NCBI GenBank assembly: GCA_036785375.1
Contig: JAWMAR010000612.1
Span: 248,001-312,000, forward strand
DNA: 64,000 nucleotides
DNA from: Leucoraja ocellata
Taxonomy: Eukaryota
Direction of reading: 5' to 3'
The notes beneath the pieces were generated by a model, which saw nothing but the letters and a program-made list of their open reading frames with translations, ran no database searches and was not told the DNA's origin. Position numbers and translations under genes: made by a program. Below, piece after piece: positions 460 through 58,330 of the stretch. How positions within the stretch are numbered: the stretch's first letter is position 1; each line of letters starts with the position of its first letter.

Positions 460-760
460 AAAAAGACACTGTGTTGGACATCATCTCTGGAGAATATGGA
501 TAGGTGACGTTTCATGTCGGGGCCCTTCTTCAGGCTGTTTGTGGTGGAGGATGCAGAAAGCTGGAAGAGGAGAGGCAAGACAAAGTCTGGCGAGTGATAG
601 ATGGAGACACGTTAGGAAAGTATTTAATAGGCAGATGGTTGGACGAAGCTCAAAAATAAAAAGACAAAAGGTGTGAGATAAGGATAGAAGAAGTCTGATT
701 TGTGAAGTCTGAGGAAGTGTTTTTGTTTTTATTTTGTAAATCGGCATCTAGTTCCTTGTT
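460..760 (-). mobile_element. Penelope-derived repeat with decayed hammerhead core (506-533)
   Basis: Reverse complement reads CTGAAGA-agggccccgacat-GAAACGTC-acctatccatattctccagagatg, the same unit as at 42206 and 52254. Confidence 0.7.
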
Positions 761-859
761 CCTCTCTTTATAAAAGATTGTATATTAGGTTTGCTTTTGC
801 ACATTTGATGTTGTCTTAGGCAGTCCCACTGTTTGAGGAGACTTGCTTCCATTTCTGAT

Positions 860-1790
860 GAAATGGTTAATGTACAAGGAGGTTGCATACCTTCCACTTT
901 ATGATGGTGTTTGTGTGCACTTGATGCATGGGTTGGAGTTTGGATTCATTGATTTCAAGGATGCAATGCAAATGCAAGGATGACATTGAATCATTTCCCC
1001 TTTCCTAACTAGATTTTTTTTCCAATGACACAATTTGGTCTGTATTGTCTATTGTAAGAGTCTGGTGTCAGCCATTCAAATGATGAGGTGTTTCACTGAG
1101 ATGATAGATTATGTTTTTACCAGGGTTTCAGTGCTGCTGATTTTGCCCTTCCAATAGACAAGGTTTTTGCAGAGATGATGTTGGTGGTATCTTTCCGATG
1201 CCTGTCACAGATGATCCAGATCATGGAAGCATATAAGAGAGCCAGGATCACCGCAGCCCATTAGGCCATGAGTTTTGCAATGTCTGAAGTTTAATTCCTC
1301 AATCGACCAAGGGCTAGATTGGCCCACTGAAAGCACTGGTGAATTTAGTCACTGGTGTCTGCCTTTGATAGTTGGCTCCAGATAGATGAAAAATAATCTG
1401 TTTTCCTGAGTCTTGCCATGAACCTTTATTGTTGGAGGGTGGTATTTATAGCCTGAGCAGGTTGATCGGTAAAGTGCTTTGTCTTTTCATTGTTAAATGC
1501 AAGGCCCATCTTGTGCTTCAGTGAATTTGTCTTCAATGACTGAAGCTTGTCCTCTGAGTTTGTCCACATGCTTCAAACTGGTGTTAGAGTGCAGTCGCTG
1601 TGAATTGAACAGTTCTTTATTAGTTCTGAAGGTTAACTGGACGTGCAGGAAGTTTGTTGAAGGCGAGATATAGCATTGCCTTGAGAAAGATTGCAAAAAG
1701 TGCTGGATAATGATGTAGCCTTGCTGTCAATCGTCGTCACTGTGATTGGTTTATCTGAGTTCTGCCATTATTCAGCGAAAGATTTATACA
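860..1790 (-). mobile_element. Degenerate RTE-clade LINE reverse transcriptase remnant
   Basis: Minus-strand fragments translate to RTE-like segments (FRTNKELFNSQRL, IKVHG, YLGA, AVILALLY) with many frameshifts. Confidence 0.55.
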
Positions 1791-4416
1791 ACCATCACGC
1801 GTGATCTTTCCTCCAGTCCCTTGGAGAGTACTATTACAACAGCAGCAGCTCTGTCAACTCTTTAAAAGAAAGTAAGATCATTAAAAATTGGTTCTCTCCA
1901 GTAGTACTGTGGATGGTATTTACAAAATCAGCATTTTGAAGGAATAAAACATTGATGGGTTAATATGGATTTTCTCCCCACTTTGCATTGGCCATAATGG
2001 TGTGGCTATAATTTGTAAACAATTGCATGTGTTTTGGCAGGTTCATTTTGGCCAGCCTTTGATCCTTCACCGATACCTTCTGTAAATGGGAACCATGTGC
2101 AGAAACTGCTTCCCAATCAAACACAACCCACACAAAACCATGTATAAATGGAACTAAATTGGCAAAACTGAATGTCTATTTCTATGGGTGAAGCTTAGTA
2201 CTGACAGTCTTCAGCCCGAAACGTTAAATCTTTCTCTTTCCACAAATGCGACCCGACCTGAGTACAGTGTACAATTTCGGTCACCTTACTATAAGAAGAA
2301 TGTCATTAAACTGGAATTGGTGCAGAAAATATTTGCGAGGATGTTGGGAGTTTGACGATTTGAAATGAGGATGGGCTGGGTCATTATTCTATGGAGCGTA
2401 TGAAGCTGAGTGGAGAACTTATAGAGATTTATACATGCTGAACGCACAGTGGAGTCAAGATTCTCACCGTACATGTGTATATGACAATAAACTTCTCTTG
2501 AATTTATCCTGTTATCCCTTTTTAATTGCTTGCAGCAACTACAATGTGCTTGTTTATCCCATTTGTTGTGATGCATCCCCAGTGAATCCTGTTCTTATTT
2601 TCAATTTAAGTTTTTATTTTCTGTTATTCTCTTCCAAAACTAGTCAGAATGTCAAACCTTGCTTTACCTGCGTTTTTTTCTACATTATTTGCCACCCATG
2701 TCTTGTTGCTTTCAGTTCCTATCATTTAAAAAAAAAATAAAACAACGAGATTCGTTGTAGTGACTCATTAAGGGTCAATGGTAAGAGATTCACCATTACC
2801 ATTGAAAGGACATTTAACAGCGGACATTAAATGCTCAGCTCGCCACCAATACCTGCATTGAGTAAATCAATTAATTCCCGATTTTGTTGTTAACTAGATC
2901 TGCCATAATTTTTAAGATTACATCCACTTGTTCTGGCTCCACTAATGATAGAAAGTGTTTTGTTTACCTAACCTACCAATAACTGAATCAATCAAATAAT
3001 CTTGTGGCCTTGTTAATTCAAGGTTATACAAGTCATGTTTGTGCAGTTGACATTTCCCTGTACTGCATTCTATGTGTCATAGTTTTGCACACTTGTGTTG
3101 CATGTAAACTTCTCTTGTTCACACGGGTAACTGCCTCACCTTGGTCACCGTGCAAGCTTTGATAAAGAAATGGAATGTAGAATACTTGTAACAAGCCCTT
3201 GGACAGAAACTGCTAGAAGAGGATAAAAAGGAAATGACAAATAAGGCAGCACTAACTCATTTGTAGCACCTAGTTCTAACTCTTCTAAGTTGGCTGTAGG
3301 TAATTTAGCTGCTGATTGTATGGCTGTAGATTTGTCCACATTCTTTGTAGATAAATAATGCACTGCATAGCTTGTGGCATTTGGTTAGAGCCGGCTGTGG
3401 TATATACTGCTGTTATTCTCGATGCAATATACTAGTCATTACTTGGCCAATTATGAAGGTTGCTTCTGCATAAAAACATTTGTTATTGGGGATTGTAAGA
3501 CATTCTTAATATTGTTTTGTTCTAGCTTTGCTTAGACATGGCTAACAGAATGTAAAAGTTAATGTCAATGTTTTTGTTCAGATATAGTCAACTAATCTTA
3601 TATAGTAGATCATCTGCATTCACAAGTCCTCCTCTTTCCTAAATATGATGTATTACTCAAAGAATCCTTCTGACGGGATGTATTTCTAATGAGCATGTAA
3701 TAGCATATAGGCAGAAAGTAATTTAATTTAATATGTCCATTTTATGCCCTATACATCACTGCCTAGTTTTGTTGGAACCCAATTATATCATTAATGCTGA
3801 AGTGTTGACAATTGGGACCATGTCCCAAAATTAACTGCTTCTCCTTCAAACTAGTGGCTGGCTTATCCAACATGTATCCCAGCCAAATTGTGCTATCGTT
3901 GTAGATCTCTGTTTACTTGTTCTGATTTATTGTTTTTCTTTTCATGTGTTTTTGGAATTTGTGGTTTGCTAGTTAGGCCAGCATCCTTATTTGTGCTTGA
4001 ACTGAATGGTACAATTAAGAGACAGTTTAAACATTGATTTGGGTCTGGATTTTAAAGAAGGCAGCTTTTAGAAATTGACCAGATAGGTTTTTATGCCTTT
4101 TACAATCACCATCACATTAGCTTAATAAAATCTAGAATTAACTAGTTTCAATTCCTCAACTGCTGTGCGCTTGTCACGAAGTTATTGAGCCTGATCAATA
4201 CATTACCAATCCAGTAAACTGCCACAACTGTGCTATGCTGCATACAACAATAGTGGATTTGTGTTCATAAATCCATCCTCTATGAAGAATGTATAATATT
4301 GTCTTCCTAAATGTAATATGCTTTCAAATTAAAACAGTATTTATTGTGAAGTTATTTGAGCCGTCTTGCCTGATGGAATCTAATTCTAATTTTGATTTGG
4401 TTAAATCTTGTCCTAG

Positions 4417-31858
<27,442 letters not shown>

Positions 31859-36903: not shown

Positions 36904-37500
36904 ATGAGCCGGCACGAGCAGGCCCTCGCTTTGACTCCCGCAGATCTGGGCCACACTCACCAAGACCTACAATGGACCCCAACTTTACTTCATTCTATGT
37001 CTTCAACAAACAGTTCCTCGCCTACCTGGACTCTACTAAGGATCACAAGCTTGCCTGCCTCCAGACCGGTCCTTCCACCGACACTCCTCAACTCGACTGC
37101 CCACAGGCCCATGACTCCACCGCTGGGCCACGCGACCTGCTCAACCACCACGGGGCCGATACCCCGGAGGCCATTATCGCCATGAAGACTAGCACAAATG
37201 TCCACAGCTTCTCCGACCCTCATCGCCGATCCCAGGCCTGGACCACCGAATCTACAGCCGCCTCCCCGGGGGCCACTGCCGCTGACCCTCACCACCTCCC
37301 CGGGGCCACCGACGCCACCTCCAACTGACCACTGACGCTTTGCTTGCTGACCCGTTTAAAAAATTTAAGCAGTCTGAAGAAGGACCTCTACCCGAAGCGT
37401 CACCCATTCCTCCTATCCAGAGATGCTGCCTGGCCCGCTGAGTTTACTCAAGCATTTTGTACCTATTTTCAGTGACAACCAGTATCTGCAGTTCCTTCCT
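36904..37500 (+). mobile_element. Probable Penelope-like N-terminal ORF fragment joined to a hammerhead-bearing terminal repeat (core 37374-37401, GAAA changed to GAAG)
   Basis: C-rich ORF remnant (FNKQFLAYLDSTKDHKLACLQ) followed by agtCTGAAGAaggacctctacccGAAGcgtcacccattcc...gatgctgcctggcccgctgag. Confidence 0.6.
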
Positions 37501-38693
37501 GGGCCCTCCATTGATATCCTCCTGAGAATATGAACTTCTATTTAGCATCCCAGCTGAAAGGCACCGCATCCAATGCAGCAGCATTCCCTTACTGCTACAA
37601 CAGGCGCACCTTTTGTACTCGAGTGGGACTCGAACTCATCTGACTCAAGCTTGCGTTCTATCAGTTTACCACTGTGTCAATGGTGCAGACATACTGCATG
37701 GTTCTCAGCAGCAGCTCGCCTTTACCCAAAGCCAATTAGATGTGAGGAGCAAATGCTGGCTGTGTCAGTGACAGATTCTATGAGTGAAGTTTTATCTTCC
37801 CAGAACAAAGACTCGACTGGCCCCCAAACAGGTTGCAGCAGTGAATTGTGATGACTGCTGTCGGTGATTCATATTATTAATATAAAACTTATTGTGTGTT
37901 CCCCAGCATTGAATGATCTGTTTTGAAGATCAAAAAGACAGCAGGTATTTTTCCATATTTTTCGCTCTTGCATATGGAAGTCTGTAGTTGCAAGCAAGAA
38001 TTTCTGCTTATCTTCCTGTTCTCCGGATTGGAGTGATTCATGAATGGTTTCAGTCAGCTGCCAGAGTTAAAGAAGCTTATTTTCCTCTTGCTTTGACTCG
38101 CTGCCAGTAAGGCAAGTTAACTTTTCTATTTTTGGGCACTTTAACCATGCCGCTGTCAATTCCTGCACTATACCTTGTGCTTGTTTTACCACATTGCTGC
38201 TTGCACAGAATGGATCGTTTTAAGACCTGAGTACACCGTTTGTTCAGCCAATATATCTCAGCACTTTTGCAACTAGAATTGCCTATTATTATATTTCCTG
38301 AATTAATAGTGTTTTTTCCAGTTGACAGGGAATACCGATATCGGTGGCTATCATAGTAGACATTCACTGATACTTTCTATCCACACTCCCCTATGCCAAA
38401 CATCAAACTTTGTGGATTGGATTTTATGGGTTTACAAAGCTGGTTTCAAATGTTCTAGACTGTAAGAAGGTAAGTGTGAATTGATGCTTATGTCCACTTC
38501 AGCACAGAGGCATTCATTGATAAAGGAAAAAATGAGGCTCATTTGCAATTGATTTGGCTTGAAATAACTGATGCGAGAGACCGGGACTTTAGTGGTCGAA
38601 GGACACAAAACCCTTATTTAGTACAGTTGAATGAATTTCCTCTGGAGTCAGAAATTTATGGGTTTCATCCCTACTGCTAGAGTTGACATTTCA

Positions 38694-38972
38694 TTTAGTT
38701 TAGAGATACAGAGCGGGAACAGGCTCTTCGCCCCACCGGGACCGCGCCGACCAGCGATCCCCACACATTAACACAATCCTACACCCACGAGGGGCAATTT
38801 ACACATTTACCAAGCCAATTAACCTACCTGGGAAGAAACCAAAGATCTCGGAGAAAACCCACGCAGTTCACGGGGAGAAGGTAAAGAGAGCACCCGTAGT
38901 CAGGATCGAACCCGGGTCTCTGGTGCTGCATTCGCTGTAAGGCAGCAACTCTACCGCTGCGCCACCGTGACC
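38694..38972 (-). mobile_element. HE1/V-SINE-type tRNA-derived SINE, near full length
   Basis: Reverse complement has A-box GGTGGCGCAGCGGTAGAG, B-box GGTTCGATCC, central gtgggttttctcc region and gctctgtatctctaaactaaa tail. Confidence 0.85.
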
Positions 38973-39309
38973 GCAGCGCGGCTCTGGCCAGCAGCGGCCT
39001 CTGCAGCCTGTCCGCGTTTTTATTATTTTTTGTCTGTGTTTTTATGTAGTTTTTGTTATTTTATGTTGAGGTGTGTGTGTGGGGGGGCGGGGGTGGGGTG
39101 GGAGGGGGGGGGAAACTTTTTGAATCTCTCCCTGCACTGGAGACCCGACCTTTTCTCGTCGGGTCTCAGGTGTCGTTGAGGCCGCAACGAGGAGCGGCCT
39201 CCAACAGGAAGAAGCCGGGGACTCGGGTGTCGACTCACCGTTGCCGTCACGGAGCTGGCCGGGTCCGGAGCGGGTGGAGCGGTGGAGGAGCGCTGCTGCT
39301 GCTGCTGTC

Positions 39310-39342
<33 letters not shown>

Positions 39343-39860: not shown

Positions 39861-41499
39861 GTGACGCAAGTCTAGGGTGAGGCATCTATTGCAATACTGA
39901 GGGAGCGCTGCATTGTTGGTGGTGGCATTTTTCAAATGTGGTTAAAACAAGCCACCCTCTCAATTAAAAATCCCACCACAGTTTCAAAGGGGAGCAGGAA
40001 AGCACTTCACAAAATCCTTCAGTCATCACCACAAAAATAGATTATCAACTATTATTTGTGGGATGAAAATTGAACTGTTTTTTTTCCAGCATTCTGTGGA
40101 CAAAGGAAACAGAGAGTTAAAAAGGTTAAGATCAATAATTCAACTCTTTAGATCTTTGTAGATTCTGCCAGAATTTCTGAGTACTAGCAGCATTTTTTAA
40201 TACTCCAAATTCCCACCAACTACTGTTCCTTTTTTGGCTTTTTATTATAGTTGTGTGGGATTTTGCTGTGTACAAATTGTTTGCCATAGAGCTTAGAAAA
40301 CAGTGATCAAGCTTCTAAAATATTTCATTGCCTTTAAAGTGAGTGACCCAGGGGTTTCAAAAGATGTCGTAGAATTGAGTCTGCTTATATTTACAGGTGC
40401 ACTGTATTAAAGGAGTTGAAGTAATATACAATGTTTTGTTAGACATAATGAACAAGCGATCAAGGTAGTAACTTAATGCAATAGTCATAAGTTCTAAACT
40501 TTTAAATACATGAAATGTTTTAAAATGCTATGAATGTCTTTTTAAACCATTTTACAGCAAGCTACTCTTAAATAGTTCTGAATGTGGTCCTTATAAAGTA
40601 GGAAACAATCTGCAAGGGATCTTTGAGTGGGATAAAGGTTGAAACGTTACGTTGGAGATCTTTGGTACTTCTCACTATCTTGCTGGAAATTCTCTTTGTA
40701 TTGGGAGAAAGGTAGCTCCTGTACTTCACTGGGTTGATCCCAAAACTGCTACCGAGCAGTTACTGGGAATGGAGGGCTTGAGTTATAAGGAGATACTGAC
40801 GAGGCTGCGGGTTTTTTCTCTGGAATGTAAGAGATTGAGGAGTGACCTTATTGAGGTATATAAAATGTACATGTGCTGTACGACTCTGTTGCTCTATATT
40901 CTGGCACATTTAAGTGGAGGTTGCTGACCTAAATTGGCTCCCAGCTGCACATCCTATAAAACTAAAGATTTAAAAAAAAGCATGTTCATGTCCCACCAAT
41001 ACCTATTCACTGATATGTTTCCCAACTCTGCAAACGTTTCTGTTTCTGAAACAATGCTTTCTTTCTTTCCATTGCTCCACCATTGGCCACTGTTCTTTAC
41101 GCTGCCTGGGCCGTTGGCCCTGGAATCCCAGCCCTAAACATCCCTGAATCTTCCCTTTTAAATGCTCCTTTACAAAACATCTATCCCTTTGACCAAACCT
41201 TTGGCCACTAGGCCAAATATCTCCTTGGGAGGTTTGGTCACCTATTTATTGGATACTACTCGTACGAATGGGTTGATTCAAATAAATCTCTGTGAATGCA
41301 TTGTATAATGAGGCCCCAAACTGGATGCAGTTTCTGTATCTCTCCAAGCAGAGTTGACATACATTTTGTAAAAGAAAAAGTGGGGTAAAAATTCTACCGT
41401 GTTATTAATCTTTCATGGTTCAAATTGTGTATCTGTCTTTGACTGTTCCACTTTCTGTCCACCTCCTATAATCCTGGTTCTCTTCAGCACTGGTTTTGT

Positions 41500-41620
41500 G
41501 CAAAACACCAGATGTCCAGCAGTCTGAAGAAGGGTCTCGACTCGAAACGTTGCCCATTTCCTTCGCTCCATAGATGCTGCCTCATCCGCTGAGTTTCTCC
41601 AGCATTTTTGTCTACCTTGG
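41500..41620 (+). mobile_element. Penelope-derived short repeat with intact hammerhead core (41524-41551)
   Basis: CTGAAGA-a-GGGTC-tc-GACTC-GAAAC-GTT followed by gcccatttccttcgctccatagatgctgcc. Confidence 0.75.
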
Positions 41621-41944
41621 ATGTCCAGCAGGTGTCTCTGTTGTGCTGCGGAGAACAAATTTTATCTGACACTTGAGGGCTTGAGACACTTAAGACCATT
41701 TCAGCTTGTTCCACCATTCAGTGAGGTCATGGCTGAAATGTAACCCTAAAGTCACATCAAGTCGGGTTTATGCGAGAGTACGGTTCAGTACAGGCACAAT
41801 AAAAATTTGCTTTCAACAGCATCACAAGCACATAAACTCAGATAACACTCGAAGCATGAATTGTACATAACTTATACATACATCTTGCAAGTTGATAAAA
41901 AGAGTGTGCAAATAAATAAACAAGTCCATGACAATGCAATAGGT

Positions 41945-42335
41945 GAAGGGGGAGGGGATGGAGAGAGAGGAACAGCAAGGGCTACTTGAAGTTAGAAAAG
42001 CCAATGTTAATACCGCTGGGGTGCAAGCTACCCAAGCGAAATATGAGGTGCTTGCACCCCAGTGGTATGAACATTGACTTTTCTAACTTCAAGTAGCCCT
42101 TGCTTTCCCTCTATCTCCATCCCCTCCCCCTTCCCAGTTCTCCTACCAGTGTTACTGTGTCCGGCTACATTCTACCTCTGTCCCGCCCGCTCCCCTGACA
42201 TCAGTCTGAAGAAGGGTCTCGACCCGAAACGTCACCCATTCCTTCTCTCCAGAGATGCTGCCTGTCCCGCTGAGTTGCTCCAGCATTTTGTGTCTACCTT
42301 CGATTTAAACCAGCATCTGCAGTTCTTTCCTACAC
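41945..42335 (+). mobile_element. Penelope-like 3' end with inverted 5' duplication and intact hammerhead core (42206-42233)
   Basis: 84-nt inverted arms (41945-42028 and 42050-42133), then CTGAAGA-a-GGGTC-tc-GACCC-GAAAC-GTC. Confidence 0.82.
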
Positions 42336-43411
42336 ACTTCCAGTCAAGTGTTCTCTGCCTGAGAAGAGAATAGTTTTGAAAGGCGATGACTGTTGTAATG
42401 AAGCTGATTTGTACACAGCAAGCTCCCAATGGGTGGTAATGCCATGAAGACCAGGGGCATAGTGGTTGTAATAAAAGCACAAATATTTCAATCCAGTCAG
42501 AATCCTGTATCTCTGCAGTCCATGAGGTGGCGCCCACTGCCGTTGTTTGATCATCAAACATCCTGGGTTCAGTTGATCCTCGGTGCTTCACAAGCACCAG
42601 ACGTTGTTGATGTTGGTTTATTTTCAACTACTGTCGGCACCATCCCCCAGATGTTCTGACCTGCTTGCTTGACACAAAGAGGCAGCAGAACACAAACACA
42701 ACCTCTGGGAGGAATGATGTTGCCTCTACCCACCGATTTGTACAACAGGCCTGTGGGTTGAATTCCACAAACTGTGCAGATGTCACAACCTCAGTTTTTT
42801 TAAAGTGATATACAAAATGCAAATATTATTTTGTGATGTAATACTTTCACTTGGGGTTGAGGGATTACAGTAACATTAATGTAACAGCTAACACTAGGAC
42901 ACCCAGCCTTTTTCTTTTCCCCTCTGTACTTGGCTCTACTTAGACTTACGACTGTCCTGTAGTGTGTCTGTGAACAATTTGATGAGACACAACTTCTGTT
43001 GACTGACCAGTCCACCCTTCTCCACTGCAGCCCCAGTCTCGCATGACTGCCTGCTGATTGAATTGATCACTTTTCCTGACTTCAGAGTGTTTAGTTTTAA
43101 AATACGCCATTTGCCATAAACAATTGTAACTGTAGCTTCCTCTTTGACCTAACCTCTCTCTCTTTCTCTCAGTTGGGTATCTCTCTCTTCTCTTTGATAC
43201 AGTTATTAATGGCAACGTCATAATTTCTGAATTATATCTCGTGTGGCCAAACTAATTTCAATATTTACTATGGTATTACTTCACTTCAATAAAGTTTCAG
43301 AAACGAGGGACAACAATGGGTTCTATTCCAGCTGAGGAAATAAAAATACTTCCCAGCATCTGTTCTCTATTCATACACACAGCTTCAATATATGCTTGTT
43401 TGCATAACTGA

Positions 43412-43567
43412 NNNNNNNNNNNNNNNNNNNNNNNNNNNNNNNNNNNNNNNNNNNNNNNNNNNNNNNNNNNNNNNNNNNNNNNNNNNNNNNNNNNNNNNNN
43501 NNNNNNNNNNNNNNNNNNNNNNNNNNNNNNNNNNNNNNNNNNNNNNNNNNNNNNNNNNNNNNNNNNN
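43412..43567. other. Assembly gap (156 N)
   Basis: Run of N. Confidence 0.99.
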
Positions 43568-45014
43568 CAGGTGTTGCGATAGTTCAAGACAATTCTCTTA
43601 GAATAAGTCACTCCAAGGGCATCTTGGTTGGCATGGATGAGATGGACTGAAGGGCCTGTTTCCGTGCTGTATGACACTGCTACAGGGCTGGAAAGCAGCA
43701 GAATTGGATCCCGACTATACTGAGTTAGCAGGCATCAAACGGAGCAAACAAAGTTGGTCCTCAATGTGGCATGACTGCAGAGGGCGAATTATTCAACTGG
43801 ATAAGGCATTGCAGCCTTTCCCTGCAGTCGCATGTGTGGGTATGGACAACTGCAAATAAACTTCCTCTGATGCCTTTCAGAATGTCCTGAGTGCTGTTTG
43901 AATGTGGCTTTATGGTGGTGTGGAAACAAACACAGCTATCTCTCTCTTGCAAGTCTAAACTCAGCAAGTTTCCACAACCTCCATGGGAACATTCTGTTTT
44001 TAGTGGCATTAATTCAGGAACCATATTGGCCAGGATGCTTCAAAAAAGCCTCATAATGGGCTTCTAATATACAGTATTTTATTAAGTTCTTAATGATTAC
44101 AGAATTGCCAAACGGTATTTTGTCTACTGTGACCGTATTTTGAGGGGGGGGGGGGGGGAGAAGAGTGACATTGTGGAGGGAATTGTTGGCTGATAAATTC
44201 TCTGGTACAATGACTATTGGAATCTAGTCAAGAGCATTCGTATTCTTGTTAACTTTTATGTCTTCCTGTTAAAGGAACAACAATGGAATTTAGCAAGGAC
44301 AAGTTGTGGCTTGGGAGTGATTATCTGTGATTTTTCTTCTGCTGGGCTCCAGTTTCTGATGCATTTAGGCTTTGCTAAATTAAAGCCAGTTTGATACAAC
44401 ACCCAGCAAAATCGCTGTTGCACACGTCATTATTGCATCTCACTATGCCTAAGTATGATTGATGGCTTATTCATGTTACTGACTTCTGATTTCTTGCATC
44501 TCTGATTCCTGTTGCATTAAGGCTGCAAATTAGCTGCCAAACCAGTTACAGTTTGCTCTTTTTTACAAGATAAAAAAACAGATTTTTTCTTTTTATCATG
44601 TGAATCATTGGTTCTGAACATTTTATTTCAATTGGTGATTGATGTAATCACGAAGGAGTATTGTTATAAGTACAAGCCTATTTCGTGCAATTTTAAATAA
44701 CTGGTATGCACAATGTTATTTGTTCAATGGAAGCACTAGAGATTGCCAATGTTGCTATCTGGGGGGGCGGGAACAGCTGAAGGAACTCAATGGGTCCAGC
44801 AGCATCTGTGGATGCAAGGGGATGGTCAGTAGTTCCCTTTGTCTCTACGGATGTTGCCTGACCTCTCGAGTTCCTCCAGCAGTTTATTTGCTCAGTTTTT
44901 GTAAAGCCGAGCTAACAAGTCAAAATTTAATATTCATACCATATCCTTTGTTTGTTAAAACTGTTTTAGAAGCATTTGAGGTCTAGTGATTGACATTTTA
45001 TAGTTTTGAGAATT

Positions 45015-46980: not shown

Positions 46981-47244
46981 AAATACTAATTTAATCCTGA
47001 TGTCCAGAGATTCCGCAGTCATGGAATCATCAGTCTTTTCTCGCTGATGCTGCCTGCCGTGCTGAATGTTACCAGCTCTTTTCATTTGATTCAGCAACGA
47101 TAACTCAGTGTGTGTGAAAGTTGTGGGTTGAAATCTCACAGTCAGAGGAACTGCCTTTTGTGTGAACAGGTAAACTGAGGCCCCATCCTCCTTCTGATAT
47201 GGTGTCAAGTATCCAGCGCCCCATGGGGAGTTCCACCTATGGTT

Positions 47245-47450
47245 AGGGAGTTTGGATGTTTTCCCTGTGACCACGTGGGTTTTCTCCGGCTGTTCCTGTT
47301 GCCACCCACACTCCAAAGACGTACAGGTTTGTTCGTTAATTGGCTTGGTAAGTTGTAAAATTGTCCCTAGTGTGTAAGATAGTGTATGGGGTGATCACTG
47401 GTCTGGGTGGGCACAGTGGCCAAAGGGCCTGGTTCCACTCTGTATCTCTG
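47245..47450 (+). mobile_element. HE1/V-SINE-type SINE, 5'-truncated
   Basis: gtgaccacgtgggttttctccgg...ctccaaagacgtacaggtttg...gggcctggttccactctgtatctct. Confidence 0.75.
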
Positions 47451-48229
47451 AAGTCCGAAGGAAGATATTTATTCCTCGACAATAATTGAAAATGCTAAAT
47501 GATCTGGTTATTGTCACAAAAGGACACAAAGTGCTGGAGTAATTCAGAGGGTCGGGCAGCATCTCTGGAGAACATGGAAAGGTGACGTTTTAGGTTGGGG
47601 CTTTTTTTAAGAGCATTCTCCCAGACCCACTGAGTTATTACAGCACTTTGTGTCTTTTTTTTGTAAACCAGCATCTGCAGTTCCTTGTTTCTATTGGTTG
47701 TTGTTATACACTATGGGAGCTTACAGTGTGGAAACTAATGTTTGCTATATTGTAACCACATTTTATATAGTTTCATACTTCCTGTTGTGGAGAAGGAGGT
47801 TGTTCCACCACTGAGCCTACGCTGTTACTCAGCGCGATGCTATTAATCCGATACCTCCCTTTATTTCCCTCTAATATATTCTCTCAGGCGTATCCGTTAA
47901 CATCTCCGATTCTTCCACTAGCCATCTACAATTGGGATAATTTACAGTTGCTAATTAACCTTTCAACATGTCTTTGGGAAGTGGGAGAAAGCTGGAGCAC
48001 TCACCCAGCCATGGAGAGAACATATCAACTCCTCTCAGCACTTCTCAAAGGTCAGAATTGAACCTGGGTCTTTTGAGCTGTAAGAGAGCTGCACTCCATG
48101 GAATTCAACTGCTCTCTCCTTCAAAATAACGTCAGCGGCTGCAAAGTACTTTGGTGCGGAATGAGGGTGTAAAATGTTCTATGTTACATTCTCACGGTGG
48201 GACCAGATGAATGTCCGTGCCTCGTCCAT

Positions 48230-48445
48230 ACGTACACTAGTTCCATCCTACACAATTTACAGAATCCAATTAACCTAAAAACCTGCACATCTTTGGTGTG
48301 TGGGAGGAAACCGGTGCACCCGGAGAAAACCTACGCGGTCACATGGAGAAGGTACAAACTCCGTACAGACAGCACCCATAGTCAGGATCGAACCCAGGTC
48401 TCTGGTGCTGTAAGGCAGCAACTTCACCGCTGTGACACTGTGCCC
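48230..48445 (-). mobile_element. HE1/V-SINE-type SINE
   Basis: gtcaggatcgaacccaggtctctggtgctgtaaggcagcaact is the reverse tRNA-like head, followed by the central conserved region. Confidence 0.8.
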
Positions 48446-49134
48446 TCAGTTGTGTAACTCCAAATTCTCCTGCTCCACCTTTGGTTTTGAGCCCTCAGCT
48501 GCAAGGCCTTCATCTATGGAATTCTCTCCCTCTGCCTTTCTGCCTCTTCCCCTTTAAGGTGCTGCTGCAAACATCTCTCAAGAGCCAGACTGACTGGGTA
48601 AACAGCATTTGAAATGTCCTGACCTAAACGTGTTGCATCAGCACTGGTGCTGTTGAGCCACTCACTAATGCACAACATACTGTAAAATAAACAGGAGATA
48701 TAAGAGCTTTGCAAGCAATGTAAAACTTTGAGAATAACTCCCAACACAAAGATAAGCTTTGTGTTTCCATTGCAGCCTGAGCTATGATTGTGCGTGCAGT
48801 GACCTGTGTAAATCACACAATGGCTTTATCTCTTTCCCTCTGCACCTGAGACTTCACAGAAACGCTTTGTTCTCAGTAAACACTGGAGATAGCTTGGCTC
48901 CTAATCTGTGGTTTCAGGCAGCACGATTAACTCAGTTAATCTGAAAGCCACCAGGAGGGTTGTGTAGACCCGGGAAAGAGTGCGATCGAGGGAGGTCGAG
49001 CAGCCAAACACTGTACAGTGCACCTGCTTGAATTGGAGCTTCGAACTTTGACAGCTGGAAACTCATCTGCCGCCCAGTGTCCGTTTCCCCATGCATCCAT
49101 TCCTGCCCTGCCCCTTCGCCCTCATGCAATTGTC

Positions 49135-49230
49135 AGAATGTTTGAAGAAGGGTCTCGACCCGAAACGTCACCCATTCCTTCTCTCCAGAGATGCTGCCTG
49201 TCCCGCTGAGTTACTCCAGAATTTTGTGTC
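49135..49230 (+). mobile_element. Penelope-derived short repeat, hammerhead core with C to T change (49142-49169)
   Basis: TTGAAGA-a-GGGTC-tc-GACCC-GAAAC-GTC-acccattccttctctccagagatgctgcc. Confidence 0.75.
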
Positions 49231-49486
49231 AGAGTGTTTTGCTGGACAATATCAGAAACAGAGGCTGGGGAAGGCCTTTCAGCCTCTCGAGATACTTCCG
49301 CCATTCAGTGTGGTTGACGTTGGCGTAAGCTCCAGTTTCCTGCTTGCTATCCTTCACCCATGACTCCTCATTGAATACATTAAATGATTCAGCCTCCCAT
49401 GTTAGAATATTGATACATGGCCACCAGGAAGAAGTGGAAGTTGATATTGTTCTTTGAGATGTAATCAATGCCCACAGCTGGGCATT

Positions 49487-49772
49487 GGGCACCATGGTGG
49501 CGCAGAGGTCGAGTTGCTGCCTTACAGTGCCAGGGACCCGGGTTTGATCCTGTCTACCGGTGCTATCTTCTACGTTCTCCGCGTGACCATGTGGGTTTTC
49601 ACCAGGCGCTCCGGTTTCCTCCCACATTCCAAAGACGAACCCGTTTGTAGGTTAATTGGCTTCAGTAAATTGGAAATTGTTGGTAGGGTGTAGGATCATG
49701 GGATATGCGGGGTGATCGCTGGTCGATGCGGATTCGTTGGGCCGGGCCTGTATTGCCGCTGTATCTCTAAAC
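49487..49772 (+). mobile_element. HE1/V-SINE-type SINE, full length
   Basis: ggtggcgcagaggtcgagttgctgccttacag...gggtttgatcc...gtgggttttc...gctgtatctctaaac. Confidence 0.85.
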
Positions 49773-51419
49773 CTATGTCCAGCATCTGTGGTTTTTTTAC
49801 TTTCCTTTCCCAGCATTGATTAGATGGGTGGATTGGCCAGTTCCTTTATTGTATATTCAGTGCGGTGATCTAACTACTGTCCTGTTTTTGATGGTGCTGA
49901 ATATTTACAGTTAAAACTTTACTCTTAGGCATTAAGATATCAGTATCGACAAAATGCTTTGTGCCATTTCCCGAAACGGCAGCCACTGTGACTTATGGAG
50001 TATTATATTGGTGTGACGTGATTATAGCATAAATTAATTCCTTCTTGGGCCAACGTTTAGCCAAGGCAGTTTTTGAGACGGAGAAGATGGGGAGCGAAAA
50101 GGAAATAAAATATCCTGCCATGTCTGGGTTAAAAAACAAGTGAGGCTTCATGTTGAGTCTTGAAGTTTCCAGAGTGGTTCAGTAATGTGCTTATGCAAGC
50201 AGAGAGAAGCTTACCAAGCGCTCTGATCTGTTCAGCAGGCTGTGGGAATGAGCTGGGAATTTAATCAGCGATTAATTTTATCATATTGACTCTGCAGTTT
50301 GTGACAAAATGTCAACATTAGCTCTGTCAACAATGAAAGAGTTGCTATTTGCACAATCAACACAGACGCCAATAGCACAAAGAACTGGAGGTCACAGGGA
50401 GGGAGGGGGGAAAGGGGGAAGTTTTATTATTACAGGATCGCTGAACAAAAGGAATAGGATGAAGTGCGGGCAGATGGGTGTGGGCATCATTCATACTCCA
50501 TTGTATAAATGAACGGGCACTGCACACATCGTGGTTGGCATGTAATTAGGTTCTTGCTCTTGCTGTGTTTGTTTAATGGGCAGGTGGACCCTCACTGCTG
50601 TGGAAATATTGACCTACATGCTGCTATTTAGCAAGCACGGCTCCCCTTCTCTTTAAGCCGTTTCTCTGTGGCAGTGGCACATTGGGGAGCTATGGGACTG
50701 TAGATGCTTGAATGGTGGGAAGCTTCTTCTGGCGTGTGCAGTGTGCCCCTGGTCAATGAGATTGCGGTTCTCAATACCCCCTCTGAGCATTGAAGGTATC
50801 AGAGGAGGTGAGACATTTATTTATGGGCCTTTTGAAAGCATTCATGAAACATTTCCTCCTTGCACCTGAGGAGCAATCTCTTGCCATGCCAGGGCTAAGT
50901 TCATTTCTGGAGCCTGGTGGCAGGCATGTGAACACAGTGGGCAGCTGAGTACGATTAGTACCTCCGTGCTGGCGGGACTGGTCTGGGAAAGGTCGCTGAC
51001 ATTGATTACAACAACCATTGAGTGTTTGTTGGCACACACACACCACGAGGCCTCACAGCCTTGCCAATGGAACACTCGCTAATGAGAGATTAAAGGCTTT
51101 CTTATCAGTTTGCCTTTGTCCTTGCTGAAGGAGGCTGCTTTCCCAGGGCCCTGCCGTTAATATTTATTTGGGCCTGCAGCAGTTTGCTGTTGCTCAGGCG
51201 TCACCATAACTGCTCCCATTGACAGGTTGTTTGCTCACATTCCCCGTCCAAAGATTATATGTGAATGAGTACCTCGGAGTCCGAGCTTATGACATTGAAG
51301 GTGGCCGTTTGGCCCATTGAGTCTGTGCCAGTTTTCAGAGCAACTCTACCGCTGCGCCACTGTGACTGCCACCTTGACTGGAGTAGCTCAGTGGGTTCAT
51401 CTTCTGAAGATCCCCATCC

Positions 51420-51755
51420 CCCCCTCCTCCTTCTGTCTTCACAGTCTGCAACTCCTCAAACCTCTCTTATACTTATAGTTCATATTTCTGGCCTTTGTTC
51501 CAATTATCTGCCTGTCAAAACATCTCAATGCCCCTCGTCTTTTTTGACAGGCAGATGATTGGAACAATGGCCAGAGATTGCCCGCCACAGTTTGCCCCTC
51601 CTCTCCCTTTTTCCAGCTCTCTTCTCCCCCCCCCCGCCCCCTCCCCCCCACCACAGTCAGTCTGATGAACGGTCTGGATCCGAAACATTACCTATCCATG
51701 TTCTCCAGAGATGCTTCCTGACCAGCTGAGTTACTTCAGCACTTTGTGTCTTCTT
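51420..51755 (+). mobile_element. Penelope-derived 3' repeat with variant hammerhead core (51662-51689)
   Basis: CTGATGA-acggtctggatcc-GAAAC-ATT followed by acctatccatgttctccagagatgc. Confidence 0.65.
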
Positions 51756-52199
51756 TTGGAAATACATCGTGGCCTTTGTGGTTTTTTACAAATCCAGTAT
51801 TAGTGATGCATGTTGAACAGGACCCTGCAGTCTTCAACAATTGTGGCTTGCTGGAGCCATGTAAGGCTTTTTTATTATAGCCTTTGTTATCATGAAGAGA
51901 GTGTTTTGTAGCAGGCTGTTCCTGAAGAAAGCTTCCATTGGGGATGGATTGGGACAAAGATTAAACGGCCTCAGAGATCTGAACATTTCCATTCAAAGAA
52001 TAAATTACAACATGCAGTGAACCTTTGTGGCTCTGTTGCTGATTCTGAGTTGGAGGGACTGAAATAAACCACTGATTTCTTGTAAAATCAGTGATTCAAT
52101 ACACAGGCTCTCTAGCCACATATCCCAGTCGAAATCAATTTTAGCCTCCAGCACATTGGGACAGTCAATGCCGATTCGGTGGGGCAAATGGCCTGTTTC

Positions 52200-52762
52200 C
52201 GTGCTGGAGTAACTCAGTGGGACAGGCAGCATCACTGGAGGGAAGGGATGGGTGACGTTTCGGGTCGAGACCCTTCTTCAGACTTGTCAGGGGAAAGGGA
52301 AACGAGAGATATAGACAGCGATATTGAGAGAGATGGGACAAATGAATGAAAGATATGCAAAACTAATTATGATAAAGGAGACAGGCCATTGTTAGCTGTT
52401 TGCTAGGTGAGAACGGAAACCTGGTGCGACTTGGGTGGTGGAGAGAGAGGGAGTGCAGGGGTTACTTGAAGTTAATTAATCAATATTCATACTACTGGGG
52501 TGAGAGCTGCCCAAGCAAAATATGAAACGCTGTTCCTACAATTTATGATTAGCATCACTCTGACAATGGAGGAGGCCTAGGTCAGTGTGGGAATGGGAAG
52601 GGGAATTTAAGTGTTTGGCAACCGGGAGATCAGGTAAGTCCAGGCAGACTGAGCAAAGGTGTTCAGCGAAACGATCGCCCAGTCTACGTCCGGTCTCGCC
52701 GTTGTATAAGAGTCCACATCTTGAACAACGGATACAGTAGATGAGGGTGGGGGAGGTGAAAT
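52200..52762 (-). mobile_element. 5'-truncated Penelope-like element: GIY-YIG endonuclease remnant, 3' region and intact hammerhead core (52254-52281)
   Basis: LIYCIRCSRCGLLYNGETGRRLGDRFAEH is a PLE-type GIY-YIG with CxxC; downstream on the same strand is CTGAAGA-a-GGGTC-tc-GACCC-GAAAC-GTC. Confidence 0.88.
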
Positions 52763-55084
52763 GTTCATTCCAAAACGTAAAGTCCCAAAGAGCGACAATA
52801 GGAAGCCTTTGACAGGCACTCCTGGCCTTCCACATCCTGTACAGAGTAGCAGCAATTAGAAAAAGATTACTAACAAGATTATAAACAACTTTTGACTGGA
52901 TTCCCAAAGCCAGATGGTTTAAGGATGCAGTGGAGTTATGTTTGGCTTGGTTACTGTGATGGGATTTTTCAGATTGTTAACTCAATTAATTACCCGATGA
53001 GCCCACAATGGTGTCAACCTCTCCTCCAAACAAAGTAACATTCAGCTGATTTGTTCGATACATGTATATAAATTAACATCCTTTGCTGTCTGGAAATTAA
53101 ATCCGATGCTATAAAACTGACGTAGTTGGGAGTGGCACAGAGCTGCTGCCTCACAGTGCCGGAGACCCGGGTTCGATCCTGACCTCGGGTGGAATGTGCA
53201 TGTTCTGCCTGTGACTGCTTGGGCTTCCTCCGTGTGCCGTTCCACCTCTTTGCCACAACGCAATATTCCTGTACACTTGAAAATCTAAGAAACTGCTGGA
53301 AATCTAAAATAAAAACAGAAAATGCTGGTGATACTCCACACGTCTGGCAACATCAGTGGCAGTATCTCCTGTGCTAGGGCAACCTTCCCAAGTAAAGGTG
53401 CTATGTAAATGCAAATTGTGTTTGTTGTACCTTGATCACATGAGCTTTGACAAACGCAGTTTACTGATCGTAATTACCTTAGACTCTGTAATCAAAAGAC
53501 ATTTATGGCAAATTGTTTGCTTTGTATTGAATAATCAGTTGGCCTGCCAAGCACTTCCATACCATTTGTTAATTACTGTTTCACTTTTATTGCTAAAAGC
53601 CTGTGTAGCGATATGGACAATATGAGGGTCATAAGTTACTGTGTACACAGTGACAGGCCTGTGCTCCACAGAGACTCTATTAAATCATTGTGATTAGGAG
53701 CAATGGAAAATAAGTGACAGCTTTGTTAGTCCAATTGTGTAGTGTCTATTTGCCCAAGCGCTCGGCTGTATGAACACACAGTAGTCTTTCAATGCACTGT
53801 TGAAATAGCATGATTTCTAAAACATCCGGCTCTTATTTGCAGGGAGCATATTGCCTGCACAGAAGGTGATCACATCTTTTTACCCATCTCCTGCAGGTTC
53901 AAGTAGCCTCTTGGAAACAATGAACAAACCCAAGCTCCATGAGTTTCCAGCCAGGTCTGCCCTAGTACAGCGACACTTTTTGATCTGAAGGAGGATCCTG
54001 ACCCGAAATGTCACCCGTCCATTCTTCCAGAGATGCTGCCTGACCCACTGATAGACACAAAATGCCAGAATAACTCAGGTGACAGGCAGCATCTCTGGAG
54101 AGAAGGAATGGGTGATGTTTTGGGACCTGCTGAGTTACCCCAGCACTTTGTATTTTTGTAAACCAGCATCTTCAGTTTCTTATGTTGACTTTTTTTATTT
54201 ACTTATTTGTTTATCCTTTTATTTGTTCATGGGACGCAGACTTATGGGCAAGGCTGGCATAGCTTATTGCGTGCAAACTGACAAAGGTCTATAACACCAA
54301 AGGGTCATATGCCAATTTGGACTGCAAATTTGACCCATTTTCCCTACATTGTATCAACTCCCCCAGTTTGGACCACTCACCTGCACACTCTGGGGCAATT
54401 TACCTCTTGGCCAACGTCTTTGTGATGTGGGAAGAAACCCATGAGGTCACAGGGAGAACATGCAAACTCCACACAGACAGCACCCGATGTCAGGAACGAA
54501 CCCAGGTGTCTGTTCCTATGAGAGTGGCTGTACTAGGTGCGCCATTGTGCTGCCTATTGATTCTGGGTCAATGTTGTTAATGTATGTTTGGAGTTGAACC
54601 TCCAAATGTCTCTGAATGGATCAGCTATCTCCCCATGGAATCTCCTTGAACTGTTGAGATCAGTGCCTCATAAGTAAATTTAGAAACTCCAGCTGCTGAG
54701 AAGACAATAATTGGAAAATGTCAAATCTTCGTTCTGTAATCGAAAGAACACTTCCATTCCTATAGCGTTTTTTTACAAGCACAAGATGCCTTAATAAACC
54801 TTACAGCCAAGGAAGTTCTTTGGGAGTGTGGTCATTTTTATAAAGTAGATAACATAGCAGTCAGTCTACGTGCAGTAAATCCCAAACAATGGTGTGATAA
54901 TAACCAGACTATCTGTTATCTATGAAAATGGTTGAGGGATAACTGTTGGCAGAGGACATGGAGAATACGTGAAACAGTGCTGTGGGGCATTTTGTGTCTT
55001 GCTGAAAGAACCTTGGTTTTAAAGATGGCACCTTTAGCAACACACAGCTCTGCCTTGGTGATGTAGCAGAATGTCTGTCTGACC

Positions 55085-55220
55085 TCTGGGAGTCAGGGGT
55101 TATGGGGAGAAGGCAGTAGAATGGGATTGAGGAAAGATAAATAAAGCACGATTGAATGGTGCAGTGGACCTGATGGGCCGAATGGCCTAATTCTGCTCCT
55201 GGAACTTATAAACCTATGAA
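55085..55220 (+). mobile_element. CR1 LINE 3' tail fragment
   Basis: ggggttatggggagaaggcag...tgatgggccgaatggcctaattctgctcct; further fragments at 56085-56300 and 56500-56840. Confidence 0.7.
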
Positions 55221-57455
55221 CTTTGGCTGCAACCTTCAGGAGGTTTGTCCTGTGGACATAGACTGATCAACTTCCAGCTCATCGGACTGCGACGTGACCT
55301 CCATCAATATTGATAAAAGCCAAGGGTTTTGCACAATCTCTCCCAGGCTGCAGAGTAAATAACTAACGCGCTATAAAATTAAGAAATCAGATTTCCATTG
55401 AGGCATGGATCAATCAGGGCTTGTATGATTTGAAAGTCACATCAGAACTTTGTCCCCAAAATGCTTCCTGATATTTTCTCCCATATTTATATTATCCCCC
55501 TAGGTCAATTTATCTGCTTTCTTGCAATAAGAGATGATTATAAAGTCCCACCCTGTGTTGGCTAATGCGCATCACATGACCCTGTAGATACTTCCTGGTT
55601 AGATGACAATAGGATCCCAACAATGGTCCTCCATCAGCTGGGGCAGTAGAGTTCAAAGATTATAGAGCGCAGCTATAATCTTTGGTAGAGTTGGCCATCT
55701 TTGGGGCCCTGCTTGATCCCTTTGGAAAATGACTCTGAGCCATTGAGTCTGGCAAATATATAAAGGCAACTGGTACCGACTGTTTGTTGAGGGTTGTTGT
55801 GGTTGCATTTGGAAGAGGATCCAGAGATGGGGAGCCAAGGATGAACTAGAAAAGCAGGGTGAGGGTTTTAAACAGAGAGCCAGTCAAGAAGCTGGGGGAG
55901 GTGGTGTTGGGAAGAGTGTGGGGCTGCAGTTTTTGTGTTAATGAACTGTTTCATGCCAGCTCTGCCTCGTTACTTCCCTCTCCGTGGTTGTCATTTCAAA
56001 CTCCACTGGTGAAGCGTGAGTACAACATTCTCTGCTGTGCATTCACAGGGAGCATCTCACTGAGAGATTCATGTTTTCATGTTCGTGTGGAATTCAATGC
56101 CACAGACAGCTGTGGAGACCAAGTCAATGGATATTTTTAGGGCAGAGATTGATTAGCAAGGGTATCAAGGCCAGAGATGGGGAGAAGGCATGAGAATAGG
56201 TTTCAGAGGGAATGATAGATCAGCCATGATTAAATGGTGGAGTAGACTTGATGGGCCAAATGGCCTAATTCTGATCCTATAAATTATGAACTTATGAACA
56301 AGGAACTGCAGCTGCTGGTTTACACAAAAGGATACAAAGTGCTGAGTAACTCGATGGGTTAGGCAGCTTCTCTGGAGAATGTGGATAGGGAATGTTGTGG
56401 GTTTGTGTGGAGTTTACACGTTCTCCCTGTAATGTGGATTCCTTTCAACATCCCAAAAATGAGCTGATTGATATTTCAATTGGCCTCTGTAATTAAAAAT
56501 GTCTAGCATTGTTAAGAGTAGATAGTCACAACCTTTTCCCCATTGTAGTAGTATCGATAATAGGTGGGACTGGGATTAAGTTAAGAGGAAATTGTTGCAA
56601 AGAGGATTTGAGAGAAAATTCTTTACCCAGAGAGTGGTTGATATCTGAAACTCACTGCCAGAGTAGATGGTGGAGTTAGAAACAGTCTCTCTGTTACTGA
56701 GATATTTAGACAGACACCAAAATACGCATTGCTTTGAAGGATTGTACATATGTGGGCTTTATGTAAATAGCCAAAATAGTCAGCATGGACATGGTGGGCT
56801 GAGGGGACTGTTTCTATGGTGTATAACTCTATAGCTATGACTCTACGTGTGGTGGAATTTGGGGGCAGTTCAGGGAGCTGAGGGGACAAATATAATGAGG
56901 TAAAACAGGATTAGTATAGAAATGGGTGCTGAGTGGTCAGCATGGACTTGGAAGGCCAAATAGCCGATTTCCATGCTGTATTTCTCTTTGACTCTGACTC
57001 TATCTCTCTTTGTCTTCTTCCACTCAAAACCTCCATGAAAACCTTTCCATTGGTGATGCTTTATCTTTCTAGAGAGTGGTTGAAATCTGGAACTGGCTGC
57101 CAAAGGAAGTGGTGCCAATAGAACTGGCTACAACACCGATAATAGTTACATTGACTGAGGGCTGCGATGCTGTCCTGAATTTAGTGACTCGTTGATGTGT
57201 GCGAGATGTGGTTTGGTAACCTGGAGAGCTCTGTACTCTGCCACCTCGCTGCTGGTATGTGGCCTTATTGATTCATAGCAGCACTGGACAAACTGTAATG
57301 TTGGGGATTCCACGTTCTGGATGGGACATTAAACCGAGACCTTGGCTTCTTTCTCAGCAGAATGCTGCACAATGCCAATACCACTATTTTGAAGAGGAGC
57401 AATGGCGATCTGCCGGGGAACCTCCACATTTATCCGAGGAGCAGATGGAGCCTCA

Positions 57456-57661
57456 AGGGCCTGTTCCTCTTGGGCGTCATTTACGCAACATCGTTTACTC
57501 GTCATGGGGCACGACACACGCGTGGTGACGCGCACGTGATGTGCGCATGGCGTGCATTACGCGTGCGTGGTGACGTAGGCAGTCGCGCGCGGCGCCCCAG
57601 GATTTTGGAATTCATAAAATCTTTGCGCGCCACCTGCAATACGCCCAAGTGGACAGGCCCT
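57456..57661. mobile_element. PIF/Harbinger-like MITE, CpG-rich, TCA target duplication
   Basis: TCA|AGGGCCTGTTCCTCTTGGGCG ... CGCCCAAGTGGACAGGCCCT|TCA. Confidence 0.8.
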
Positions 57662-58064
57662 TCAGTTTAAGCGGGCTGCTCTGACCGTGCACCACTTCAT
57701 TGCGATTCCACTGAAACCTCAGCCTGGAGTTTATACACACCCTGCGACTGAGGTGAGATCATTACCCACGAGGTCATGACTAACCCAGTAATCTTTTCTG
57801 CTTAAGAGCCACACACTGCTTCTTCATGAGTCTGTGACATTGCTAATGCCAATGATTCGGTTGGACACAGACCTAGTGAGGCAATTACTGGTGAAATATG
57901 CAAATGTGATACCTCCTCAGTTGCTCGCTTCCTGTATGATGTGAATAGTGACTTCCACACAAAGCTTTCTTAACATTCAAATAGTGTAGGCACCTCCAGT
58001 GCCCCAACCTTGTCAGGATGGTATGTCGGTGAAGCGCGCAAGGTGTCGGAGGTAAATTCTGTGA

Positions 58065-58330
58065 GAATGGGAATAGATGTTGGTTTGAGTCGAAACCCTT
58101 CTTCAGACCGAGAGTCAGAGGAAAAGGAAACTAGAGGCATGAAATGATTCGGAACAAATCAAAGCCGACACCGATGACCAAGGAATGGTGGAGCCCACAA
58201 TGGACCATTGTTGGCTGGGTAGGAGGTGATAACGAAAGGATATATGGATACAAACAGTGGAACCAGCAGGATGGCTGGGGTGGTGGAGAGAGAGAGAGGG
58301 ATCAGGAATGCAGAGGTTACTTGAAACCAG
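58065..58330 (-). mobile_element. Penelope-derived 3' repeat, decayed hammerhead core
   Basis: gagtcgaaacccttcttcagac (reverse of CTGAAGA-agggtttcgactc) followed by sequence similar to 52280-52470. Confidence 0.6.

Follow-up and report, generated by a model that had tools for sequence, protein, structure and literature searches.

A 64,000-nucleotide stretch of the Leucoraja ocellata genome (contig JAWMAR010000612.1 of assembly GCA_036785375.1, positions 248,001 to 312,000; to be referred to as the window) contains a dispersed family of repeats with a minimal hammerhead ribozyme core. By the features tested, these repeats are the terminal repeats (pLTRs) of an endonuclease-bearing Penelope-like element (PLE). 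The copies are very probably the dead-on-arrival products of a Neptune-type element of this kind, which went through at least two waves of activity in the skate lineage. For the hammerhead in the Penelope cycle, a role in processing or circularisation has been proposed, yet activity is weak and the templates are uncleaved in vitro. The insertion ends of an abundant skate family offer a direct genomic test. In the numbering used here, p1 is position 42206 of the window (C3 of the copy located there), and the predicted cut is after p28 (42233). Cleavage before copying would place the ends at p29, and run-off or fold-back would place them at p-3 to p+3. The window favours p-3 to p+3, and the family appears as an ordinary PLE repeat, with no sign of acting on host genes.

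The 5' ends were compared first for 16 insertions, and three weak ones were added later to give 19, with boundaries drawn by eye. Seven of the 19 begin downstream of p3, seven at p-3 to p+3, none at p-4 to p-79, and five at least 80 nt into the 3' untranslated region (UTR) or open reading frame (ORF). Among the 12 insertions that reach p3, 7 stop at p-3 to p+3, where 0.4 would be expected at a constant rate (P ~3e-8, or 3e-6 after correction). A conservative set, from which two insertions without a duplication or junction anchor were dropped, gives 5 of 10 (P ~2e-5, or 1e-3 after correction). Stops in the region of the cleavage site (p26 to p32) are found in 1 of 16, an old and ambiguous pair at 44772. 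Every copy that spans the core was made from uncleaved RNA, which means that the ribozyme was inactive or slow when the copies were made. This agrees with the in vitro results for a PLE of the anole, where mainly unprocessed RNA is inserted and the ribozyme needs protein (PMC11167929).

The templates had a fixed 5' stop, possibly the start of transcription. In one explanation, to which we give a little less than an even chance, reverse transcription primed in the upstream pLTR ran off the 5' end of the transcript at p-3 to p+3. The sequence TCAGT at 42201-42205 resembles an initiator. A similar initiator-like motif is noted in PMC3846280, and PLE transcription starts lie in the pLTR (PMC8557442). 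In another explanation, which we regard as doubtful, the new cDNA folded back on itself at this point. A cDNA ending near p-2 to p+1 is predicted to pair with the p29 to p49 region (about -9 kcal/mol). The junction of an inverted pair at 47504 (p0-1 to about p48-50) is a good fit to such a fold-back, and those of the pairs at 9821 and 61914 are less good. A fuller model is tentative and rather unlikely to hold as a whole. Here, the fixed stop would be the transcription start, most copies would be run-off cDNAs from the upstream pLTR, stem I would have 2 bp because the RNA begins there, and a hairpin of p1-11 with p29-49 would keep the ribozyme off until the protein of the element or a second RNA activates it.

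A profile search detects 25 segments at E<=1, 20 of which had served to build the profile, and the reversed window gives one match (E 0.96). The 25 segments were grouped by eye into the 19 insertions, and 12 of them span the core. A covariance model of 11 copies gives 16 matches with E<0.001, all of them previously known, and reveals no core beyond those of the profile search. PLE-derived DNA, including a separate reverse transcriptase (RT) remnant, makes up about 6% of the window. The insertions are as follows.

42050-42340, plus strand: young 5'-truncated PLE copy, with the last 14 codons of GIY-YIG (42052-42093), the stop (42094-42096), a 109-bp 3' UTR, the core (42206-42233), the remaining pLTR and a 3' tail.
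41945-42053, minus strand: inverted arm of the 42050-42340 insertion, with the GIY-YIG end and the start of the UTR; head-to-head, the arms being identical at 78 of 84 positions.
52202-52769, minus strand: young 5'-truncated PLE copy, with a GIY-YIG remnant (52479-52769) that has a stop and a frameshift, about 180 bp of UTR, an intact core (52254-52281) and a 3' end cut at about p80.
41520-41631, plus strand: solo pLTR, starting at p-3 to p0, with its core at 41524-41551 and a 12-bp duplication (41511-41522 and 41620-41631).
49143-49232, plus strand: solo pLTR, starting at p2-3, with a duplication of 12/13 (49131-49143 and 49227-49239).
37370-37501, plus strand: solo pLTR with tail, starting at about p-3; core and stem II are damaged and there is no significant duplication.
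9821-10007, both strands: head-to-head pair in an intron of the KIF23 gene, with a 12-bp duplication (9810-9821 and 10008-10019); the minus arm (9821-9946) runs from p-1 to the tail with a degenerate core, and the plus arm (9944-10007) runs from about p32 on, with no core or tail.
47504-47690, both strands: head-to-head pair of an older subfamily, with a 9/10 duplication at 47505 and 47695; the minus arm reaches p0-1 with a degenerate core, and the plus arm runs from about p48-50 and has a tail.
61914-62117, both strands: head-to-head pair of the older subfamily; the minus arm (61914-62010) reaches p-2 with a degenerate core, and the plus arm (62011-62117) runs from about p18 and has a tail.
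44772-44890, both strands: old head-to-head pair, with arms that start near p26-32, no core and an ambiguous junction.
51378-51751, both strands: complex insertion of the older subfamily, with a weak minus arm (51378-51405, E 0.24), UTR pieces, an internal inversion (51491-51580), and plus-strand UTR and core (51662-51689) in which the stem III palindrome is broken.
53984-54181, plus strand: older copy, starting at about p0, with a core (53985-54012) changed at A9; it is split by a younger minus-strand pLTR fragment (54052-54124, from about p18) with an imperfect 8/10 duplication.
466-690, minus strand: copy of the older subfamily that includes about 160 bp of UTR; its core (506-533) keeps the catalytic residues, with stem II broken; it is antisense to KIF23 and upstream of the first mapped coding exon.
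58063-58330, minus strand: decayed copy with the last codons and stop, UTR and a damaged core (58080-58106), the 3' part being lost.
56297-56402, minus strand: older pLTR fragment that lacks a core; it starts at about p18, has a tail and adjoins another repeat.
53293-53359, minus strand: very old coreless fragment, found as a profile match.
16976-17053, plus strand: very old fragment in a KIF23 intron, with no recognisable core.
47044-47084, plus strand: short coreless fragment (E 9e-4).
40160-40232, plus strand: possible coreless fragment, weak (E 0.32) and included in the 19.

Each of the nine core positions listed in the first-pass annotation of this DNA holds the unit described there or a variant of it. 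A descriptor consisting of CUGANGA, a bulge of 0-1 nt, a 4-bp stem II, GAAA, a self-complementary centre and UH matches the window at exactly 41524(+), 42206(+) and 52281(-), and on 300 dinucleotide shuffles it gives a mean of 0.007 matches and a maximum of 1. These are the three cores previously called intact, but the one at 41524 has a G-U pair in stem II and a GUU cleavage triplet. Stem II contains 4 bp and a CUCG loop, not the five pairs assigned earlier, because a fifth pair would leave a loop of 2 nt. The hammerhead type was correctly identified as the minimal form of PLEs, as were its palindromic stem III and the length of stem I (2 bp). Variant cores are indeed present at their sites, except that the change in the 49142 core is host flank within the target duplication and not a point mutation.

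The bulged A at p8, between A9 and 10.1, is found in all 12 core-spanning segments. The loopless ACGU palindrome of stem III is kept in 6 of them, and all 11 catalytic positions are kept in 5. The G10.1-C11.1 pair is present, as in published minimal hammerheads. Stem I has 2 bp and is shorter than helix I of the S. mansoni families, which has 4-5 bp. The hammerhead lies within the pLTR, 110-180 bp after the GIY-YIG stop. Neither the window nor 42150-42350 by itself is matched by the hammerhead models of Rfam, and an exact-pattern scan of bacterial and archaeal genomes gives 0 matches. Two Rfam microRNA matches (41945-42134 and 51491-51571) are really inverted arms. An alternative cleavage register, with GUC at p-1 to p+1, was dismissed by eye, since it leaves stem I without a pair and gives stem III 2 bp.

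The link between the family and PLEs, drawn earlier from a single GIY-YIG remnant, holds for two copies rather than one (52479-52769, minus strand, and 42052-42093, plus strand). In both, GIY-YIG precedes the terminal repeat and lies on its strand. The remnant at 52479-52769 has a Pfam match with E 0.004, which falls short of the curated cut-off, and shows 60-66% identity by tblastn to named Leucoraja, Mobula and Hypanus proteins. The Mobula and Hypanus relatives have RT/thumb sequence upstream and a CX4CxxC linker (seen in relatives P0002 and P0003), and the remnant in the window begins downstream of the linker. In full-length relatives, the RT precedes the endonuclease. A CX2-5CxxC linker marks Neptune and Nematis and is absent in Penelope/Poseidon (PMC8557442), and Neptune is widespread in vertebrates (bioRxiv 10.64898/2026.07.22.740005). 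Judged from the linker of its relatives and this vertebrate spread, the skate element likely belongs to the Neptune clade. One Leucoraja gene model, P0001, is an apparent chimera of a LINE-type (long interspersed element) RT piece and a PLE endonuclease, and not a real PLE ORF.

The anatomy of the insertions is also that of a PLE. Head-to-head inverted arms are found in 6 of the 19 (9821, 41945, 44772, 47504, 51378 and 61914). Target duplications are found at 4 of 14 tested junction pairs (12/12, 12/12, 12/13 and 9/10); in random windows, at least 9 matches occur in 27 of 983 and at least 12 in 1 of 983. Two of the duplications enclose whole inverted pairs, and each such pair is thus a single event. 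The 3' ends, judged by eye, fall at about p90-100 or about p120-135, two classes that are about 20-40 nt apart (16-26 positions by the profile end points). In the pairs at 9821, 47504 and 61914, a tail is seen by eye on one arm only. Published hallmarks of PLEs include inverted 5'-truncated copies, a one-sided tail of 30-40 bp, duplications of 8-10 bp and solo pLTRs (PMC8557442, PMC3846280, PMC8969392), and the tail of the anole element reflects two internal RT start sites (PMC11167929). The young fragment at 54052-54124 lies inside an older copy, which fits the insertion of a PLE into its own pLTR. The UTRs of the two young ORF-linked copies (42097-42205 and 52282-52461) differ in length and sequence though their pLTRs are 94% identical. 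This suggests exchange of UTRs, or their rapid turnover, between subfamilies.

Most of the copies are short, and the first-pass annotation had described them as an ORF-free unit forming a separate non-autonomous retroposon. The short unit is real, since 14 of the 19 insertions are without UTR or ORF and many have a common 5' boundary, but its separation from the PLE is not supported. Subfamilies were followed with markers at p32, p37, p38 and p40 (p61 and p82 are uninformative and were set aside). The young marker set is found in the two ORF-linked copies and in the short copies at 37370, 41520, 49143 and 54052. The older set is found in the UTR-linked copies at 51662 and 506 and in the arms at 47504 and 61914. 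The short copy at 49143 is 97% identical to the ORF-linked copy at 42206. The short copies share their markers with the long ones and therefore track them as by-products would.

It could still be argued that the unit of about 95-135 bp is a retroposon of its own, solo pLTRs being expressed from a promoter of their own and copied again in trans by the protein of the PLE. Such a family would account for the fixed 5' boundary, the two fixed 3' ends and the duplications around solo copies. Moreover, the pLTR sequences of a rotifer element suffice in cis for mobilisation in trans (PMC3846280), and non-autonomous PLE derivatives exist (PMC8557442). The short copies have the fixed 5' and 3' ends of a SINE-like (short interspersed element) family, but show no lineage of their own: the young ones include the near-identical match to the 42206 copy, and the old ones share markers with old UTR-linked ones. 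With 20 segments and four marker columns, the comparison has little power against secondary copying of solo pLTRs. We consider an independent retroposon unlikely.

The conservation and predicted folding of the core bear on a further proposal, that the ribozymes cut host transcripts. Majority residues are kept in 118 of 130 cells at catalytic positions (91%) and in 539 of 619 in the downstream flank (87%), a difference with P 0.30. Stem II, at 95 of 120, is below the catalytic positions. A core no better kept than its flanks had been named in the first-pass annotation as evidence against its proposal, and this is the outcome in the present small sample. No excess of covariation and pairing is observed among 11 copies (402 of 500 shuffles score as high), and RNAalifold on these copies finds no consensus pairs. 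Neutral decay after insertion predicts such a pattern, which is silent on selection on the master elements.

In the predicted monomer folds, the hairpin of p1-11 with p29-49 hides the core, and 5-7 kcal/mol are needed to open it in the three intact copies. Since the folding of the 138-nt unit does not exceed that of shuffled sequences (z -0.12), the competing hairpin is not shown to be selected. A dimeric hammerhead has an energy of -12.7 kcal/mol without stem I and -6.1 kcal/mol with it, compared to -32.2 kcal/mol for the best co-fold; these nearest-neighbour energies ignore tertiary contacts and protein. There is no head-to-tail pair of the unit in the window, and neighbours on opposite strands cannot supply a dimer partner in one transcript. 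The minimal hammerheads of metazoans show no activity as monomers and low activity as dimers (PMC4209133).

The coding exons of the host gene, KIF23, lie at 4418-31858 on the plus strand, with the stop at about 31858; the first few codons were not located. The alternative exon of the long isoforms is at 24680-24973. One KIF23 exon is 97% identical to that of Amblyraja radiata and 92-95% identical to those of other rays and sharks. The density of the family, previously given as about one core per 7 kb, is uneven. Two of the 19 insertions are within the KIF23 coding span, where 8.1 would be expected (P 0.003), and 16 are beyond 37 kb. Neither of the two has a working core, and the three intact cores all lie downstream of the KIF23 stop, by more than 9 kb. 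In the 32-64 kb region, none of 110 frames of at least 72 aa has a host domain supported by Pfam, a search that short exons and non-coding RNAs would escape. A C-terminal motif of RPLP1, the usual downstream neighbour of KIF23, is absent from the six-frame translation. There are no tRNA genes in the window.

8603-9224, plus strand: decayed remnant of a PLE reverse transcriptase, within the intron that separates KIF23 exons 8323-8439 and 9407-9580; it is sense to KIF23, is joined to no pLTR and is outside the 19 insertions.

The window also has two assembly gaps, at 22507-22863 (357 N) and 43412-43567 (156 N).

Taken together, these observations do not support the cutting of host transcripts. 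Active cis-cleaving ribozymes maintained by selection would be in keeping with the three copies that retain all catalytic residues and with a core identity nominally above that of the flank, and the scarcity of insertions in KIF23 could reflect selection against genic copies. However, the excess in core identity is not significant, conservation is lower in stem II, shuffled sequences pair as well as the real ones, and genic depletion is common to many repeats and not specific to ribozymes. In addition, the core is hidden in the predicted folds and the dimeric hammerhead is far weaker than the best co-fold, no tandem dimer is present, published minimal hammerheads are weak even as dimers (PMC4209133), and the intact cores are well past KIF23, in a region with no Pfam-supported host exon among frames of at least 72 aa. 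We regard this function as very unlikely.

The products of a Neptune-type PLE thus remain the preferred reading. As in other PLEs, the protein of this element would nick DNA and start reverse transcription at two internal sites that follow the ribozyme, giving the optional tail. Priming in the downstream pLTR would produce long copies, truncated at varying points, that extend into the UTR or ORF. The short copies that stop at p-3 to p+3 would most likely come from priming in the upstream pLTR and run-off at the 5' end of the transcript. Cleavage probably requires a dimer of the ribozyme or the protein of the element, and the scattered copies would decay without function.

Several points weigh against parts of this reading. 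The boundaries were drawn by eye, and the p-3 to p+3 window was chosen after the data had been seen. The pair at 44772 starts near the cleavage site, and for the copies at 37370 and 53984 UTR differences between copies could mimic a 5' boundary. The initiator match covers only 5-6 nt. In D. virilis, the start of transcription is located far 5' of the ribozyme, which begins at the end of the intron. The Neptune assignment is drawn from the linker motif of the relatives. Significant target duplications are missing from 10 of the 14 tested junction pairs. Finally, there is no full-length element or direct pLTR-ORF-pLTR tandem in the window, and RT, endonuclease and pLTR are therefore never found together in one unit.

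Other repeats are interspersed with the family. Related inverted repeats of 50 bp delimit the elements at 33627-33931 and 60450-61060, and the second also contains tandem units of 22 bp; both look like non-autonomous DNA transposons. A second dispersed family (38840-38976, 47244-47346, 48253-48449, 49497-49672, 53154-53214 and 54430-54522) resembles the tRNA-derived HE1 SINE of sharks. LINE-like remnants are found at 34717-35023 (with RT similarity), 56629-57123 and 62519-62824, and the last two look like CR1/L2 3' ends. Three 52-bp copies (18970-19021, 30607-30658 and 58774-58825) are 98% identical and end in a short 5-bp tandem; they are probably the 3' end of a young retroelement.

If the window were typical, a skate genome of 2.2 Gb would hold about 10^5 descriptor-intact hammerheads, as extrapolated from 3 matches in one uneven window. 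This number would exceed the vertebrate counts of minimal hammerheads in PMC4209133 (4,000 and 9,000) more than tenfold. If true, the family would preserve, across the whole genome, a record of the occasions on which PLE ribozymes leave their RNA uncut.

The skate ribozymes are similar to the minimal hammerheads of PMC4209133 in their core residues, the bulged base before stem II, the G10.1-C11.1 pair and the loopless palindromic stem III. They are also mostly single and dispersed, with some close together on opposite strands, and in fish such ribozymes are found in Neptune, Poseidon and Xena. The same paper attributes dispersed single copies to truncated PLEs. The minimal hammerheads of S. 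mansoni have a stem II of 7-8 bp and a stem I of 4-5 bp, compared to 4 and 2 bp in the skate, whereas helix I of a D. virilis variant has 2 bp as here (PMC4209133). No cartilaginous fish is named in the examined text and supplements of that paper.

Non-LTR retrozymes resemble the skate units in being short and non-coding, with a type I hammerhead and a relation to pLTRs (PMC7229834, bioRxiv 10.64898/2026.07.22.740005). Descent of the units as monomers from a tandem retrozyme that replicates through circular RNA would fit the report of such pLTR-derived elements in one chondrichthyan genome and the dispersed monomers of Xenopus (bioRxiv 10.64898/2026.07.22.740005). Retrozymes are, however, described as units in head-to-tail tandem that typically carry canonical ribozymes and form circular RNA (PMC7229834, bioRxiv 10.64898/2026.07.22.740005), while the window holds no head-to-tail array and the skate ribozyme is minimal. 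Furthermore, the skate units are colinear and start upstream of the cleavage site, where a start at the site or a permuted unit would be expected, and copies continue into the PLE ORF. This origin is very improbable.

As in the Neptune-type, endonuclease-bearing PLEs described in PMC8557442 and PMC3846280, the skate element has a C-terminal GIY-YIG, 5' truncation, head-to-head copies, a tail at one end, short duplications and solo pLTRs. Duplications in A. vaga are 8-10 bp (PMC3846280), and those in the skate are 10-13 bp. With PAc, the Poseidon element of the anole, it shares two classes of 3' ends, insertion into its own pLTR and copies from uncleaved RNA, but PAc is of a different clade. 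The ORF of PAc starts inside stem II (PMC11167929). Unlike the Neptune-type elements as described in these sources (PMC8557442, PMC3846280), the skate copies have a fixed 5' stop where the ribozyme begins. In the literature search, as far as the sources found were accessible, no description of the skate family or of such a stop was found, and a Repbase or Dfam entry for the family may well exist already. The PLE hallmarks and the dispersed single minimal hammerheads are already published, and the new point is the distribution of the 5' ends.

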